A DNA stretch of 64,000 nt from Candidatus Woesearchaeota archaeon (lineage in GTDB: Archaea; Nanobdellota; Nanobdellia; Woesearchaeales; SKIA01), in the NCBI GenBank assembly GCA_046704725.1, contig JBJKRI010000003.1, positions 1 through 64,000 on the forward strand, given 5' to 3'. The notes below the pieces were generated by a model. It did no database searches. It saw only the letters and a program-made list of their open reading frames with translations, and was not told the origin of the DNA. The position numbers and the translations under genes are program-made. Below are positions 2,899-28,286 of the stretch, piece after piece. Within the stretch, counting starts at the first letter, position 1, and every line of letters starts with the position of its first letter.

Positions 2899-4011
2899 AT
2901 GCTTCCGGAGTGGTTCGAAAGGAAAAGGGCGGCGGCCAGGGCCGGCTACGCCTCGAAGAAGACCCCTCGTCTCGCCTACGGCCTCACCATCCGACTCAAT
3001 AGCCGCGCCCTCGTCCTCGACGGCAATGAAGCAACCGACAGCGAGCAGGTCGTCACGCTCGAGCATGAGGACTGCCGGATCGCCAGCCTCTTCGACATGC
3101 TAAATGATCCACAGGTCAGGCAGCATCTCTTCAGCACAGAGCCAGCAGAGCGCACGCGCATGGACGACTTCTCCGACGCCTTCTTCGACATCGGCCTTGT
3201 CGTCATCGTCCCGCCCGGAAAGGACGCCACGCTCACGCTCACGCGCACCATCACAAGCCAAGTCTTCAACGAGCGCACCCTCATCCTCTGCGGCAAGGGC
3301 AGCACCCTCACGCTCATCGACCGCTACCAAGGCGACTGCACATTGCGCGCCGGCGTCGTCGAAGCGATCCTCGAGGACGACGCCACGCTCCGCTACGCGT
3401 CCGTCCAGCACCTCGGAAAGGACGCGGTCGACCTCTCGAGCTACCGAGCGAGATGCGGAAAGGACGCGAAGGCCGACTGGTTCGTCGCGAGCATCGGTTC
3501 TGCCTTGTCGCGCGCGGAGGTCAGCACGCGTCTTGCAGGCGACGGCGGGAAAGCGCGCAGCTACGGCGTCTTCCTCGGCGACGGCACGCAGCAATTCGAC
3601 CTGTCCGCAGCCACTTTTCACGAGGGCGACCACACCGAATCCGACATGTATACGCGCGGCGTTCTCGACGGCAAGAGCAAGGCCGTCTATCGCGGCACGA
3701 TCGACATCGCCGCGAACGCCAACGGCTGCGACGGCTACCAGAAAGAGGAGACCCTGCTCGTCTCCCCCGACGCCGCCGCCGACGCGATACCCAATCTCGA
3801 GATCCGCAACAACGACGTGCGCTGCAGCCACGGGGCGACCATCGGTCGTGTCGACGAGGAGCAGCTCTTCTACCTCACCAGTCGCGGCATCCCGCGGAAC
3901 GAAGCGGTGCGCATGCTCATCGAGGGCTACTTCGAGCCGCTCACCACGCGCCTGGACTGGCCCGCTCTCTTCGAGCAGGTCAAGCCCCTGGTGGAGGCGA
4001 AGATCGCATGA
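2899..4011 (+). CDS. sufD: Fe-S cluster assembly protein, SufD/SufBD family
   Basis: C-terminal ADAIPNLEI.NNDVRCSHGATIG.VDEEQLFYL.SRGI is the SufD-type ending. Confidence 0.85.
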   Translation: MLPEWFERKRAAARAGYASKKTPRLAYGLTIRLNSRALVLDGNEATDSEQVVTLEHEDCRIASLFDMLNDPQVRQHLFSTEPAERTRMDDFSDAFFDIGLVVIVPPGKDATLTLTRTITSQVFNERTLILCGKGSTLTLIDRYQGDCTLRAGVVEAILEDDATLRYASVQHLGKDAVDLSSYRARCGKDAKADWFVASIGSALSRAEVSTRLAGDGGKARSYGVFLGDGTQQFDLSAATFHEGDHTESDMYTRGVLDGKSKAVYRGTIDIAANANGCDGYQKEETLLVSPDAAADAIPNLEIRNNDVRCSHGATIGRVDEEQLFYLTSRGIPRNEAVRMLIEGYFEPLTTRLDWPALFEQVKPLVEAKIA

Positions 4012-23627: not shown

Positions 23628-24170
23628 TCATGGTATGGGATACGCTCGGGTGATGCCGCCGATAGCGACCCGGGCGATCTCCTCGCCCGAAGGTTGGCGC
23701 TGCTCGTACCACACGATGTGGGGTTCCACACCGATCTGCTTCTCATCGGATTGACGGACGATCCCTGCGAGGTATATCGGTTCCCTGTGTTGCAGCGCGA
23801 GATAAAGGATGTTCTGCGCGCGACGCAGGACGGCGCCTCCGCCGACGGAGACGATGGTCCGGTCAGGTTCCCTGAAAGGAGCACGCACGCTGACGGAACT
23901 CGAGAGATACGAATTGAAGTGCTGCGTGACCTGCCCCCGAACGAATACGGGCGATCCCAACTCTGGTTGCCCTTCCAGAGCAGGGTACTTTTCATGGATA
24001 CGCTCGCACAGCGTCGCATAGTTCGCAGGGGCGCCATCAGCGAGCCTCAATAATGAATACAGGTCGTCAACACCCTCGGCACGCAAGGGACGCGTCCACA
24101 ACTCCGCAGTATCAGCCACTAAAAAAATCCAGTCCCGCCCCTCGTATTTAGGTGTTGCGGCTATCCGCAC
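23628..24170 (-). CDS. hypothetical protein
   Basis: 180-aa ORF filling the gap between neighbours; no motif recognised. Confidence 0.5.
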   Translation of the reverse strand: MRIAATPKYEGRDWIFLVADTAELWTRPLRAEGVDDLYSLLRLADGAPANYATLCERIHEKYPALEGQPELGSPVFVRGQVTQHFNSYLSSSVSVRAPFREPDRTIVSVGGGAVLRRAQNILYLALQHREPIYLAGIVRQSDEKQIGVEPHIVWYEQRQPSGEEIARVAIGGITRAYPIP

Positions 24171-24514
24171 CAGACGTCGCCGTAATGGAAGTCGGTCTCC
24201 TCCAGGTCGGCGTGGGGCGTGCCGTGCTCCTCGAAGTTCGCCGCCATATGCTCGTTGGGCTCGGTGGTCATGCCTTCCTCGATGAGCAGCCGGCGCTGCT
24301 TGCGCATGAGGTCGTCGATGTCGTCGCCTCCGCGCACCTGCAGCGCGAGCATGTCCGTGTACTGGTAGAACAGGAGGTTCATGATGCCGTGCTGCATCAT
24401 GTAGATCTTGAAGCGCGGCGATGCGGTCTCCCGGCGCAGTACCTTGTATATGGGGTCGTCCCAGTTGTACTCGCCGTACAGCGTGTATTCCGTCACGCTC
24501 TTATGCGTAGTCAT
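24161..24514 (-). CDS. degenerate 4Fe-4S dicluster (GlcF N-terminal-like) protein lacking ligand cysteines
   Basis: YTLYGEYNWDDPIYKVL..E..SPR aligns to CxxCGxCxxxCP.Y...E..SPRG; FYQYTDMLALQVRG aligns to FY.CxxCxxCxxxC. Confidence 0.7.
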   Translation of the reverse strand: MTTHKSVTEYTLYGEYNWDDPIYKVLRRETASPRFKIYMMQHGIMNLLFYQYTDMLALQVRGGDDIDDLMRKQRRLLIEEGMTTEPNEHMAANFEEHGTPHADLEETDFHYGDVWCG

Positions 24515-25667
24515 GCAGCCTCCCCCGGTTGAGGATGTCGTTGTAGTCGTACTCGTCCTTGAGCTTGATGAGCGTGTTCCGCAATCGCTGCGGCACGTGC
24601 TTCTTCTTGACCAGTCCGTAGCCGAACTGCCCGGAGACATCCCCGCCCAACGCCTTCACCTTCTCGTAGAAGGCCGTGCGGTCCTGCTCCCCGAAGAACG
24701 GGTGCACGATGCCCATGCCGATATGGCTGACAGCCGGCAGTTCTTGTTCCTCGCACCACGCGAGCAGGTCGTACATCTTCTCGGGCGCGACGGAACAGTC
24801 CTCGATGATCGGATGGCCCGCGCGCATCGCCGCGTCCCACGCCTGGTCGCGCCCCTTCCAGATGCGGTCCTGGCTCTCCGGATTGACGATCTCCCCCTTG
24901 TCGCCCTCGTACTCGACGAGCAGATGATGCTTCTCCTCGATGCCGGACAGTCGGCTCATCTGCGGATTCATGTACTCCAGGCTGAGAACCGTGAGGTCCT
25001 CCTTTTTCTCGTCCACAGCGGACAACAGTTCGTGCAGCTGATCGAACGGCAGCACGTCGGTGCTGCGTTTCTCGATGATAGGATACACGCGGATCTTCGC
25101 GCTGATGATGATGGCGCACGTGCCTTCCATGCCGATGAACTTCGGTTCTTGCTCCGGGTAGTGCTTTCCCGTTCCGTCGATGACCTCGAGCTCCATGACG
25201 TGCTTTCCCAATCGCCCGTGCTTGTGGCTGCGCCGGTCCATCTGGTTCATCGCGAGCAATGCGCCGATGGTCGCTACGTTCTTGCTCCCGGGCACGACGG
25301 GAAACGTGTGTCCGTGCTTCTCCAGGACCCGTTGCAGGTCCGACAGGACGACGCCTGTTTCCACGCGCACCCACCCCTCCTTGAGGTTGAGCGTGCTGAT
25401 GCGGTCGAAGTGCGCCATGTCGAGCACGATGGAGTTCTCCGGAACCACCATGCCGAGCGGATTCGCCCCGAGGCCCCGCGTGACGACGGGGATGTTCGTG
25501 CGGTTGGCGTACACGAGTATCTGCCGCAGGTCTTCGGCATTCTTCGGGAACAAGACGATGCGCGCTTTTCCTTCCAGTCCGCTCGCGTCATAGCCGTACG
25601 CGAGCAGGTCGTTGGGATTGTCCAGCGCGTTCTCCACGCCCAATAACGGTCCGAAGTGCTCTCTCAT
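24501..25667 (-). CDS. FAD-binding oxidoreductase, GlcD / D-lactate dehydrogenase-like (divergent)
   Basis: Y.YDAS, V..RG.G, ATIG, G.EGT..II, H.G.G..HP, SGQFG.G, D...ILN.G. Confidence 0.85.
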   Translation of the reverse strand: MREHFGPLLGVENALDNPNDLLAYGYDASGLEGKARIVLFPKNAEDLRQILVYANRTNIPVVTRGLGANPLGMVVPENSIVLDMAHFDRISTLNLKEGWVRVETGVVLSDLQRVLEKHGHTFPVVPGSKNVATIGALLAMNQMDRRSHKHGRLGKHVMELEVIDGTGKHYPEQEPKFIGMEGTCAIIISAKIRVYPIIEKRSTDVLPFDQLHELLSAVDEKKEDLTVLSLEYMNPQMSRLSGIEEKHHLLVEYEGDKGEIVNPESQDRIWKGRDQAWDAAMRAGHPIIEDCSVAPEKMYDLLAWCEEQELPAVSHIGMGIVHPFFGEQDRTAFYEKVKALGGDVSGQFGYGLVKKKHVPQRLRNTLIKLKDEYDYNDILNRGRLHDYA

Positions 25668-25981
25668 CGGTCGTCCCCCGAACCCTTGATGGTCCCGTTC
25701 GCGAATCGTTGTTCCAGCTTCTCGAGCATGAGCGCACAGAGCTGTTCGAGCGAGTAGCCGATCTCGTGCGCGTACGCGATCACGTATGTCAGCACGTCGG
25801 CGAGCTCTTTCGCCACATTCTGGTCGGTGGGCTTGTTCGGATCCTGGCGCAGCTGCTTCTTGCGCTTCTCGGCGACCTCTCCCGCTTCTCCGCAGACGGC
25901 GAGCGCGAGAAAGGTCTTGACGTCCTCCGCGCTGTAGCGCATGGTCTTGAGCGCCCGTTCCTCTAGTTCGTCCAAGTTCAT
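25664..25981 (-). CDS. MazG-like nucleotide pyrophosphohydrolase
   Basis: GEAGEVAEK.KK...ELADVL.Y...KL..R...G.I.GSGD.R. Confidence 0.9.
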   Translation of the reverse strand: MNLDELEERALKTMRYSAEDVKTFLALAVCGEAGEVAEKRKKQLRQDPNKPTDQNVAKELADVLTYVIAYAHEIGYSLEQLCALMLEKLEQRFANGTIKGSGDDR

Positions 25982-26646
25982 ATCTCGACGAGCACCTCCG
26001 AGAGTTCCATGACCTGCGCCGAGGTGTTCCGCTTGAGATGCAGGTAGTCCTCGGGCGAGTCGGTGATGATGAGTTGCGCCGGTGCGGTGCGGGCGCGCCG
26101 CATCGCGAGCTTCGCCGCTAATCGTGGGCTGTTGTTGATGAGTCCTGTCGACGTTCCCAGGCATTGCGTTCGTTCCTTGCACTCGTCGAACTCCTTGAGG
26201 TGGAATCCCGCCCGTACGAGGATCTCGCGCGGCTGGTGCACGATGCTGTTGCGCCGCACCTGCGTCGTATTGTCGTGGAAGCACGCTTCTGCGTTGTTGA
26301 AGCGCTGCACCTTGGCGATGTTCTCGTGCACGACCTGTGTGGTGTGCTTGGCTTCGATGCCTGGATAGAAGCGCCGGAGCATGTAGACCGCTTCTGGGCT
26401 CGAGCTGATGACGGTCTTGACCTTCATCGCTCTCAATCGCGCCAGGAGCTTCTTGCGGTGCTCCTCGAACTTCTCGTGGTATCCCTCGTCCCACAACGCC
26501 CAGCCGGTGTTGAGGTCCTCGACCAGGTCGAAGGCGATGCCGAAATCGCTCAGGAGGCTCTTCCAGTTCACGACCAGGTCCGGGAAGTACTTCGTGAGCG
26601 TGCTTCCTGGATAGTAGATGGTCTTCTTGAGCGAGAAGAGGGGCAT
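25978..26646 (-). CDS. degenerate CCG-domain (GlcF/HdrB-like) protein lacking ligand cysteines
   Basis: YYPGS, LNTG, SSPEA, FHDNT, QCLG and TDSPED occupy the YFPGC, CCG, CPxC, HDxC, CCG and TxCPxC positions. Confidence 0.8.
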   Translation of the reverse strand: MPLFSLKKTIYYPGSTLTKYFPDLVVNWKSLLSDFGIAFDLVEDLNTGWALWDEGYHEKFEEHRKKLLARLRAMKVKTVISSSPEAVYMLRRFYPGIEAKHTTQVVHENIAKVQRFNNAEACFHDNTTQVRRNSIVHQPREILVRAGFHLKEFDECKERTQCLGTSTGLINNSPRLAAKLAMRRARTAPAQLIITDSPEDYLHLKRNTSAQVMELSEVLVEI

Positions 26647-26668: not shown

Positions 26669-27391
26669 TTAATATAGGTTATGGTCGCCCTGTATGGCAG
26701 AGTAGAAGCGCTCCATGTGAGCGGTCCGGAGGTACTCGAGGCGGAACAGGGTCTCCTCAGCATCGGGCGAGCGTAACGGCTCAATCTCGTTGATGTACTT
26801 GGGAATCGTCGCGAATGGCGGTTGCTGCCTCCAACTCTGTACAAGGTTCGCGAGGCGATAGGCCGCTGTATTGACAAGCCGTTCACGTTTCGACCTTCTC
26901 GTAGCCATCGTCACTTGTTCGGACGCGATGCTGACGATACCCCGCTCGGCCGCACGCTCCCACAAACCGCTCGAGCCGACGATGCTCTCCGTCCAAGACG
27001 TGGGTTCCCCGAGCTGGGCGCGGACTTTGGCATCCATTTCCGTTCCCCAGTAGAGCATGATCGCAGGAAGGTCATCCGCTCGATATCGGAATCGATTGAT
27101 GTTTGCGCGTACGTCCCTGAACTCGCTCAGTGAGAGGCTCGCGAGCCGTACACCTCTCAAGTAATCAAATGTTGGATGGTTGAACGTTTCGGATCGGACA
27201 TCCGCTTCAGGTCCTGCGAAAGCTGCGATCCACCGTCCGGCCTCCTGCAGTGCACGATAATCTACCCGATGCCCGGGCGCGAATCTCGAGCTGCTGAGGA
27301 CTGGGACTTGATTAGGGACAGCTCCCCAGTCGCTCACAAGGTGCTGCACTCTGCGCTCCGGATCCTGTACGAGCATCAATCGGAGTTGCAT
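26669..27391 (-). CDS. hypothetical protein
   Basis: 240-aa ORF with atypical codon usage and a TTTATA box upstream. Confidence 0.55.
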   Translation of the reverse strand: MQLRLMLVQDPERRVQHLVSDWGAVPNQVPVLSSSRFAPGHRVDYRALQEAGRWIAAFAGPEADVRSETFNHPTFDYLRGVRLASLSLSEFRDVRANINRFRYRADDLPAIMLYWGTEMDAKVRAQLGEPTSWTESIVGSSGLWERAAERGIVSIASEQVTMATRRSKRERLVNTAAYRLANLVQSWRQQPPFATIPKYINEIEPLRSPDAEETLFRLEYLRTAHMERFYSAIQGDHNLY

Positions 27392-27440: not shown

Positions 27441-28226
27441 TCACGCTTTCTTCTTCAGGCCGGGGAACGCCAGTTCGAAGACTTGGGTGATCGCCGTCAC
27501 GAAGTACGGGGCGTCCACCCAGATGGCGACGTCGTAGTTCGGGTGCACCTCGTCGTCGGGCAGGAGCATGAAGACCATCTCCTTGCCGTCGGCGATGAGG
27601 AAGCGCGCGTCGACCTTGTCCGTCTCGTGGACCTGGACGTGCTCGGGCACGTCCTTCACGTGTCCGCTCACGATGGCCTTGATGGTCACGCCGCGCTTGG
27701 CCGCGTCCGCGAGCTCTTTGCGGAGCGCGTCGAGCTTGCGCGAGAGGCCGTCTGGCGTGGTCATGATGAGGATTTCTTTCTCGGCGCCCTTGATGAGGGC
27801 GCTGAACTGCTCGTACGCGGAGTGCCTGTTGCGCAGCGCGCCGCTCTTGTCGGCGGGCTCCACCATCTCCACTCCTTGTGTGTGCAGCGTGCTCAGCTCG
27901 TCGAGGATCTCGCTCCCCTTGAGCTCCTCCATCGTCTTGACTTGCGTCTCCGCGTCCTGGCGGATCTGCTTCTTGACCCGCTCGAGGACCTCCATCGGAG
28001 GCAGCGCGACGTACTTGATGGGCTTGCCGAGCTTCTGGACGATGAATCCTTTCTTCTCGAGGCTCTCAAGGACGTCGTAGGAGCGTGAGCGCGGAACGTT
28101 GGCGATGTCGGAGAGCTCGCCCGCCGTGCTGACCCCTCTGCTGAGCAGGGCGGTCCACAGCTTGGCTTCGTAGCTGTTGAGCCCGAGTTGGCCGAGCTTC
28201 TTGATGAAGTCCTTGGTAACGAGCAT
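27441..28226 (-). CDS. TrmB-family transcriptional regulator
   Basis: LGLNSYEAK...LL..G...A.ELS..A.VPRSR.YDVL.SLE.KG. Confidence 0.92.
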   Translation of the reverse strand: MLVTKDFIKKLGQLGLNSYEAKLWTALLSRGVSTAGELSDIANVPRSRSYDVLESLEKKGFIVQKLGKPIKYVALPPMEVLERVKKQIRQDAETQVKTMEELKGSEILDELSTLHTQGVEMVEPADKSGALRNRHSAYEQFSALIKGAEKEILIMTTPDGLSRKLDALRKELADAAKRGVTIKAIVSGHVKDVPEHVQVHETDKVDARFLIADGKEMVFMLLPDDEVHPNYDVAIWVDAPYFVTAITQVFELAFPGLKKKA

Positions 28227-28286
28227 GTTACAACCGGAGAAGGGCAACGAGTATATAAACCTTTTCGCCAAATAGAAGTGGTGACA

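Follow-up and report, generated by a model that had tools for sequence, protein, structure and literature searches.

What remains of a flavin and iron-sulfur (Fe-S) dehydrogenase when its cluster ligands are gone? The question is raised by four tightly coupled, co-directional genes on the minus strand, spanning 24161-26646 as judged from their translations, in a stretch of 64,000 nucleotides from a Candidatus Woesearchaeota archaeon (positions 1 to 64,000 of contig JBJKRI010000003.1, assembly GCA_046704725.1), hereafter the window. Gene A encodes a CCG protein, gene B a MazG-like protein, gene C a GlcD-like protein of the flavin adenine dinucleotide (FAD)-linked oxidase family and gene D a small ferredoxin-like protein. 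The first-pass annotation, made from the sequence alone, had described a GlcD/GlcF-like dehydrogenase operon in which essentially all Fe-S cysteines are substituted, and had proposed a cofactor-free, repurposed complex rather than decay. The cysteine replacement is confirmed by the present analysis. The genes are kept by purifying selection, and we favour a complex that has lost its clusters and has probably kept its flavin.

Ligand columns were defined as those that hold Cys in most rows of an alignment with Cys-bearing orthologues. A keeps one of the ten ligand cysteines, C162, the first Cys of its second CCG motif, and the ten columns now read S,N,T,S,A,T,C,L,S,D. D keeps none of its eight, which read Y,Y,Y,D / Y,M,L,G. 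The strings that had been quoted as former ligand sites are all present in the translations (YYPGS, LNTG, SSPEA, FHDNT, QCLG and TDSPED in A; YTLYGEYNWDDP, then ETASPR, then FYQYTDMLALQVRG in D) and fall exactly on these columns. The CCG domain is defined, in the abstract of PMC2754724, by two copies of the cysteine motif CXnCCGXmCXXC. A lacks this motif, with Cys in one of the ten ligand columns, and the same holds in three other genomes of the genus. The two CxxCxxCxxxCP motifs are likewise missing from D, in which none of the eight columns holds Cys in the four genus genomes or in 22 further homologues. Both Fe-S subunits have thus replaced their ligands in the genus, nine of ten in A and all eight in D. 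From established Fe-S chemistry, we infer that neither A nor D is still able to hold a cluster or pass electrons on.

Relationship to Fe-S proteins had been set as the test of the original claim, and both subunits show it. A gave no match to the Pfam CCG family PF02754 at E values up to 1. None of four genomes of the genus matches this family, and the sister genus (genome G006) does. In NCBIfam, A gave partial matches to the CCG regions of LdhH, TfrB and DsrK (E 2e-11 to 5e-5), and a profile of A searched against PDB sequences matched mycobacterial EtfD (9ojn_A, E 4.4e-12). A also aligns over its full length with PF02754-positive orthologues. An AlphaFold2 model of A, built like that of D from an alignment that includes Cys-bearing homologues, reached a predicted local distance difference test score (pLDDT) of 94.5. 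Foldseek matched this model to a LutA model (9a6l_A, E 2e-11), EtfD (9ojn, E 5e-11) and HdrB (5odc_B), with query-normalised TM-scores (TMq) of 0.73-0.84. Sequence comparison and modelling together indicate that A shares descent and predicted fold with CCG domain proteins, a group that includes HdrB, the C-terminal half of GlcF, LutA and SdhE.

The homology of D was established through its orthologues, because the profile of Cys-less D sequences found nothing below E 5.7 among PDB sequences. D itself has no match in Pfam or NCBIfam, and a Protein Atlas search with D returned no usable match. Alignment by hhalign of 23 Cys-less with 15 Cys-bearing D sequences gave a probability of 99.4 and an E value of 5.4e-22 over 105 columns. 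The Cys-bearing orthologues match Fer4_8 (PF13183, E 1.7e-13 and 4.9e-12), and their profile matches HdrC (5odc_C, E 6.4e-12). D also holds the same gene position in each operon compared. The model of D (pLDDT 80.7) has HdrC chains as its sole fold matches, and these are weak (TMq 0.52-0.62, probability 0.95-0.99, E 0.3). Judged by these profile comparisons, D shares common descent with Fer4_8-positive proteins.

C matches the two Pfam families expected of the GlcD / D-2-hydroxyacid dehydrogenase branch of VAO-type FAD-linked oxidases, FAD_binding_4 at 111.9 bits (cut-off 26.4) and FAD-oxidase_C at 40.4 bits (cut-off 21.2), and its PDB sequence matches are the D-lactate dehydrogenase D-LDH (8jdc), LctD (7qh2_C) and D2HGDH (6lpn). 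Against the glcD equivalog TIGR00387 it scores 106.4 bits, below the cut-off of 567.9. The canonical relative at locus L009 itself scores 187 bits against TIGR00387 and 150 bits against YdiJ, all far below equivalog cut-offs. The changes that had been claimed for the FAD subunit are seen in the alignment. In D-LDH and D2HGDH, the Glu of the GEHG motif is a metal ligand and the His is the catalytic base. Canonical relatives have GEHG, whereas C in the window reads GQFG and all 15 clade members read GQ[FH]G. The glycine loops are altered as well, with RGLGANPLGM for RGAGTGLAGG, TIGA for TIGG and NQMD for NAxG. The H-x6-H motif is retained and is invariant in the clade. C proteins of the genus score 101-122 bits against FAD_binding_4, compared with 122-137 bits in canonical kin; for the C-terminal catalytic domain, the scores are about 40 bits or below the reporting threshold, compared with 52-77 bits. 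FAD may well be kept, because the FAD_binding_4 score is still strong, and C probably still binds it. The term cofactor-free would therefore probably not apply to C.

Their homology to Fe-S and GlcD-type families shows, at the level of sequence comparison, that the ancestor of A, C and D was a split dehydrogenase with flavin and Fe-S centres, encoded by three genes and of GlcD/GlcF type, or equally of HdrC/HdrB type. This ancestor consisted of an FAD subunit, an HdrC-like relay subunit with two [4Fe-4S] clusters and an HdrB-like CCG subunit.

The distribution of the operon was determined at two levels. A first search found A homologues in nine of 41 related genomes, none with an internal stop; A is followed by C in all nine loci and C by D in seven, and locus L006 stops at a contig end. 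An order-level profile search covered 401 genomes, 57 of which gave a match, and 50 loci (30 + 20) were read; L010, from a genome flagged as unpublished, was left out of all counts. Most loci of this larger set keep the order A-C-D. The operon is thus patchily present in the archaeal order to which the window's genome belongs. A holds eight to ten of ten ligand cysteines in 43 of the 50 loci, one in the four loci of the genus, and six, four and three in the remaining loci. All eight cysteines of D are present in 32 of 40 loci, and none in the four operon-bearing genomes of the genus (G000, G001, G003 and G004). The question whether the loss is clade-wide is answered in the affirmative across these four genomes, in both Fe-S subunits. 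In G005, another genome of this family, no copy of the operon was found.

Partial or complete loss is seen in other lineages. In the classical dicluster pattern, C1-C3 and C8 bind one cluster and C4-C7 the other. The sister genus (G006, locus L037) retains nine of ten cysteines in A, and its D reads C,C,C,D / A,T,Q,C; under the classical pattern, the four ligands of one cluster are all in place and those of the other are all gone. The same loss of C4-C7 with retention of C1-C3 and C8 occurs in D of three families, represented by L037, L058 (G284; CCCG/FNTC) and L060 (G112; CCCS/YDAC). At L061 most ligands are lost (three of ten in A, two of eight in D). Among 151 representatives of the A family, 97 have all ten cysteines, and several have lost the cysteines of one whole CCG domain or all of them, such as P0154 (0/10) and P0161 (1/10); for these two, no locus was found in genome contigs. 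Single Cys-to-Asp ligand swaps occur in the Cys-rich relatives L005, L007, L020, L045 and L050. In a collection of 1.84 billion representatives at 50% identity, the Cys-less A clade forms a single cluster at 397 bits, and the next match is at 250 bits. Because cysteine loss recurs in other lineages of the family, the window operon is one end point of a repeated trend, and the idea of a unique system is not supported. The evidence supports well the view that the locus is an unusual variant of a known enzyme type and an end point of recurrent Fe-S cluster loss in small archaea.

A midpoint-rooted tree of A and C was computed after masking of the trait columns. In this tree the four rows of the genus form a clade (SH-like approximate likelihood ratio test, SH-aLRT, 99) that is sister to G006 with a support of 100. 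Among 42 trait rows, GEHG is combined with intact Fe-S ligands in 16, and GEHG is missing in 14 rows with intact ligands and in eight rows with Fe-S loss; no row combines GEHG with Fe-S loss. Likewise, every ligand is still there in the 16 GEHG rows for which D is known. These rows are related, and the counts describe a pattern rather than a statistical test. A likely order of losses follows, since all eight Fe-S-loss rows lack GEHG and no GEHG row shows a loss. The flavoprotein would first have lost its catalytic Glu-His pair; one whole cluster of the relay subunit would have gone next, and finally all clusters. Because the tree is midpoint-rooted, the direction of the GEHG change is taken from the wider family (P0068-P0076), in which GEHG is the general state. 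Parsimony requires at least two Fe-S loss changes on the tree, and no precise number of events is given because L058, L060 and L061 sit on long branches with unsure placement.

Fe-S metabolism persists elsewhere in these genomes. SufBD (two or three matches each) and radical SAM proteins (two to four each) were found in all five genomes searched from the genus and the sister genus, so that the loss is confined to this operon and does not stem from a disappearance of Fe-S proteins across the genome. The window itself carries a SufB/SufD-family gene at 3259-3927 on the plus strand (PF01458, E 3.2e-76), and a second copy lies on contig C5. As a separate observation, the sole Fer4_7 match in each of G000, G001, G003 and G004 is one frame of about 580-600 amino acids, which we take from its size to be ABCE1-like. 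With a single match of this type each, the genus genomes hold very few ferredoxin-type domains. A crude scan of open reading frames (ORFs) found one CxxCxxCxxxCP motif.

The sites vacated by the clusters have been conserved unequally. Within the clade, columns of A at most two positions from a former ligand have a mean entropy of 0.31 bits, compared with 1.07 bits elsewhere, and none of 10,000 random column sets had an entropy that low. The neighbourhoods of the former ligands are the most conserved parts of A. Six of these ten ligand columns show no variation within the clade (S, A, T, C, S, D). C162 occurs in each of 49 sequences compared, and the pocket of the former second-CCG cluster would now be a conserved polar site (H124, D125, T127, R131, C162, S197 and D200). 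D has a clade-specific, acidic C-terminal tail (24161-24205, minus strand) of the form DLEExD...(V/I)WCG. Trp and Gly of this tail are invariant, and 22 of 23 sequences have the Cys, with Ala in the remaining one; D of the sister genus ends in ...PFW, without Cys-Gly. The tail was modelled at pLDDT below 50.

Several explanations can be weighed against these results. That the genes are pseudogenes on their way out is highly improbable, although catalytic or ligand residues are gone in all three proteins and the operon is missing from the searched assemblies of G002 and G005. The reading frames are open in all four genus genomes and in all 22 further metagenomic homologues each of A (54-75% identity, all 221-232 amino acids) and D (50-74% identity) from a large protein collection; 14 C homologues with GQ[FH]G were found at 47-64% identity. 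The ratio of nonsynonymous to synonymous substitution rates (dN/dS, Nei-Gojobori) for the closest pair, L002 and L003, is 0.040 in A, 0.087 in C and 0.091 in D, values that are rough because dS is 1.1-2.2, near saturation, in the only unsaturated pairs. Pairs involving the window are saturated at synonymous sites, yet the proteins remain 59-72% identical in comparisons in which the GC content at third codon positions (GC3) differs widely (0.86-0.91 in window A, C and D, 0.30-0.50 in kin; a shift from about 0.4 to about 0.87). Codon usage is native and the junctions are coupled. Purifying selection is thus shown, as the proposal of repurposing rather than decay had anticipated. It is hardly credible that clusters are still bound through Asp, Tyr, Ser or His. 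Asp does replace a single ligand Cys in some Cys-rich relatives, and D20 and D200 are invariant; but D has no cysteine at any of eight ligand positions, which include Tyr, Met, Leu and Gly, and A has one of ten. To our knowledge, no [4Fe-4S] site without any Cys has been described.

The remaining accounts all accept that the clusters are gone and differ in what has been kept. We consider it probable, with real room for doubt, that A, C and D form a descended, selected and cluster-free complex in which C holds FAD and A and D are structural or ligand-binding. In this complex, C would no longer carry out canonical D-2-hydroxyacid dehydrogenation, the three proteins would still assemble, A and D would serve as cluster-free structural or ligand-binding subunits, and the old cluster pocket of the second CCG domain of A would have become a conserved polar site. 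Some results count against this account. The FAD loops of C have changed at three positions where glycine is otherwise conserved, and the changed forms are themselves conserved in the genus. The predicted folds of A and D draw on alignments with Cys-bearing homologues, and the dN/dS values carry the roughness stated above. The former-ligand neighbourhoods of D are not significantly more conserved than the rest (0.90 versus 1.07 bits, p 0.20), which fits a merely structural role for this subunit. The operon was also not found in G002, a 97% complete genome of the same genus, so that it is either dispensable there or unassembled; the TrmB orthologue of G002 is followed by a different gene. A complex prediction for C, A and D with FAD gave no support and no evidence against, as substitution of chain 1 in a control hardly lowered the score. 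A search for sequencing runs over 24161-26646 listed none. If FAD too were lost, the complex would be a fully redox-dead pseudoenzyme, acting as a scaffold, a small-molecule sensor or the partner of a regulator such as TrmB. We hold this to be unlikely and still worth keeping in view: the missing Glu-His pair, the changed glycines, the weak score of the C-terminal catalytic domain and the synteny of TrmB in the genus and sister genus all point towards it, but FAD_binding_4 scores in the genus lie far above the cut-off, H-x6-H is invariant, and TrmB is not beside the operon in more distant relatives. That the clusters have given way to a newly formed centre for redox chemistry or catalysis seems quite improbable to us. 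Such a centre could be a thiol/disulfide relay that links C162 in A to the WCG tail of D, for which the invariance of C162, the clade-specific tail cysteine and a low pLDDT compatible with a flexible arm could be cited, or a mononuclear metal site formed by H124, D125, C162 and D200. The six invariant former ligand columns of A count for a new centre as well. The proposal is drawn purely from conservation, the tail cysteine is an Ala in one clade member, and retention of C162 may be historical, as it is a cluster ligand in cluster-bearing homologues. Its boldest form, a long shot on the sequence evidence, is a working enzyme of a new kind, in which the pocket of A (C162, H124, D125, R131 and D200) would have been rebuilt as a cluster-free site for catalysis or redox chemistry after the old active site of the flavoprotein died, with the WCG tail of D as a second thiol. 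If true, a flavin/thiol or flavin/mononuclear-metal system would have replaced a flavin/Fe-S system, and an Fe-S electron-transfer module would be shown to turn to iron-free chemistry.

Table 1. Genes of the operon and the upstream regulator in the window.
Feature	Description	Position	Strand	Length	Pfam
Gene A	CCG protein (HdrB / GlcF C-terminal half / LutA-like), two domains	25978-26646	-	222 aa	
Gene B	MazG-like nucleotide pyrophosphohydrolase domain protein	25664-25981	-	105 aa	PF03819
Gene C	GlcD-like FAD-linked oxidase-family protein, remodelled active site	24501-25667	-	388 aa	
Gene D	Cys-less homologue of 2x[4Fe-4S] HdrC / GlcF N-terminal domain	24161-24514	-	117 aa	
TrmB	TrmB-family regulator, upstream of operon, same strand	27441-28271	-		TrmB, E 5.5e-20

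The layout of the locus is that of a compact operon (Table 1). A and B overlap in ATGA at 25978-25981, B and C in ATGA at 25664-25667, and C and D by 14 nucleotides at 24501-24514. GC3 of the operon genes is about 0.82-0.91 (gene B, 0.82), like that of neighbouring genes. The overlapping genes and normal codon usage reported earlier are thus both found. As to a four-gene dehydrogenase operon, A, C and D belong to it, and the second gene, B, is MazG-like and not a dehydrogenase part (PF03819, E 3.6e-8, 34 bits against a cut-off of 22). A search with B as the query found it in one of five genus genomes, the window's own, and it is absent between A and C in L002-L004. The gene order Orc1/Cdc6, TrmB, A, C, D, TraB, M50 protease is common to the window, G001, G004 and G006. 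TrmB keeps its place near the operon in both the genus and the sister genus; the link may be mere synteny because TrmB is not adjacent to the operon in relatives further away. The real start of TrmB is probably an internal Met about 15 codons in. Two ORFs flank the operon on the same strand, at 26669-27391 (240 amino acids) and 23628-24170 (180 amino acids), with a GC3 of 0.65 compared with 0.82-0.90 in their neighbours. Neither has a Pfam match or a homologue in the syntenic loci of G001, G004 and G006, and they may be recent insertions or not genes.

The composition of the window's genome differs from that of its kin. Its GC content is 60.6%, whereas the same-genus loci L035 (G001) and L036 (G004) have 39.6% and 42.6%; with GC3 of 0.82-0.91 in the window and 0.30-0.50 in kin, base composition has shifted very strongly within a single genus. 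The crude ORF scan of this 1.18-Mb genome also found two giant open frames, of 6531 and 2224 amino acids, on contig C6 (76732-96327 and 145582-152256, both on the minus strand).

The Fe-S ligands of HdrB-, HdrC- and GlcF-type proteins are usually treated as their defining and least replaceable residues, and annotation relies on them; A and D fall out of Pfam entirely. The operon shows that a pair of subunits dedicated to electron relay can be stripped of all clusters and yet remain under selection beside a flavoprotein partner. Its relatives supply a natural series, in which the catalytic pair is gone, then one complete cluster, then everything, and this series makes testable what Fe-S scaffolds do after metal loss. 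The case also flags DPANN proteins that are automatically annotated as 'hypothetical' or, wrongly, as 'Fe-S oxidoreductase'. A literature search found no paper on Cys-less CCG, HdrB, HdrC or GlcF homologues. The accessible parts of PMC8421398 and PMC11606122 do not mention the operon, and their supplementary tables may list these genes.

The cluster-free variant is new as a form of a known complex, and its place is best seen beside characterised systems. E. coli glycolate oxidase GlcDEF and the fused YdiJ have the same domain set (FAD_binding_4 with FAD-oxidase_C, a 2x[4Fe-4S] domain and two CCG domains). In the canonical relative L009, D matches GlcF residues 23-117 and A matches 281-403, A scoring best against TfrB, LdhH, GlpC and the C-terminal part of GlcF. 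Unlike in GlcDEF, GlcF is here split into two genes that flank the flavoprotein gene and GlcE is missing; the window's genus lacks in addition GEHG and all Fe-S ligands but one. HdrB and HdrC are the best solved-structure fold matches of A (TMq 0.73-0.78) and D (TMq 0.52-0.62). No HdrA is present, and the partner is a GlcD-like flavoprotein; because the window proteins lack cluster ligands, they would have neither non-cubane clusters nor an Hdr-type disulfide-reducing site. LutA of LutABC and mycobacterial EtfD, the top fold and sequence-profile matches of A, differ in that the operon has no LutB or LutC partners and no context linked to the membrane or to electron transfer flavoprotein (ETF), and the Cys motifs are absent in A. 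A precedent for the loss itself is subunit D of the archaeal RNA polymerase: in some lineages its ferredoxin-like domain no longer has a [4Fe-4S] cluster and is kept as a structural module. There, a single domain of a non-redox enzyme is affected, whereas here two electron-transfer subunits have changed together with the active site of their flavoprotein.

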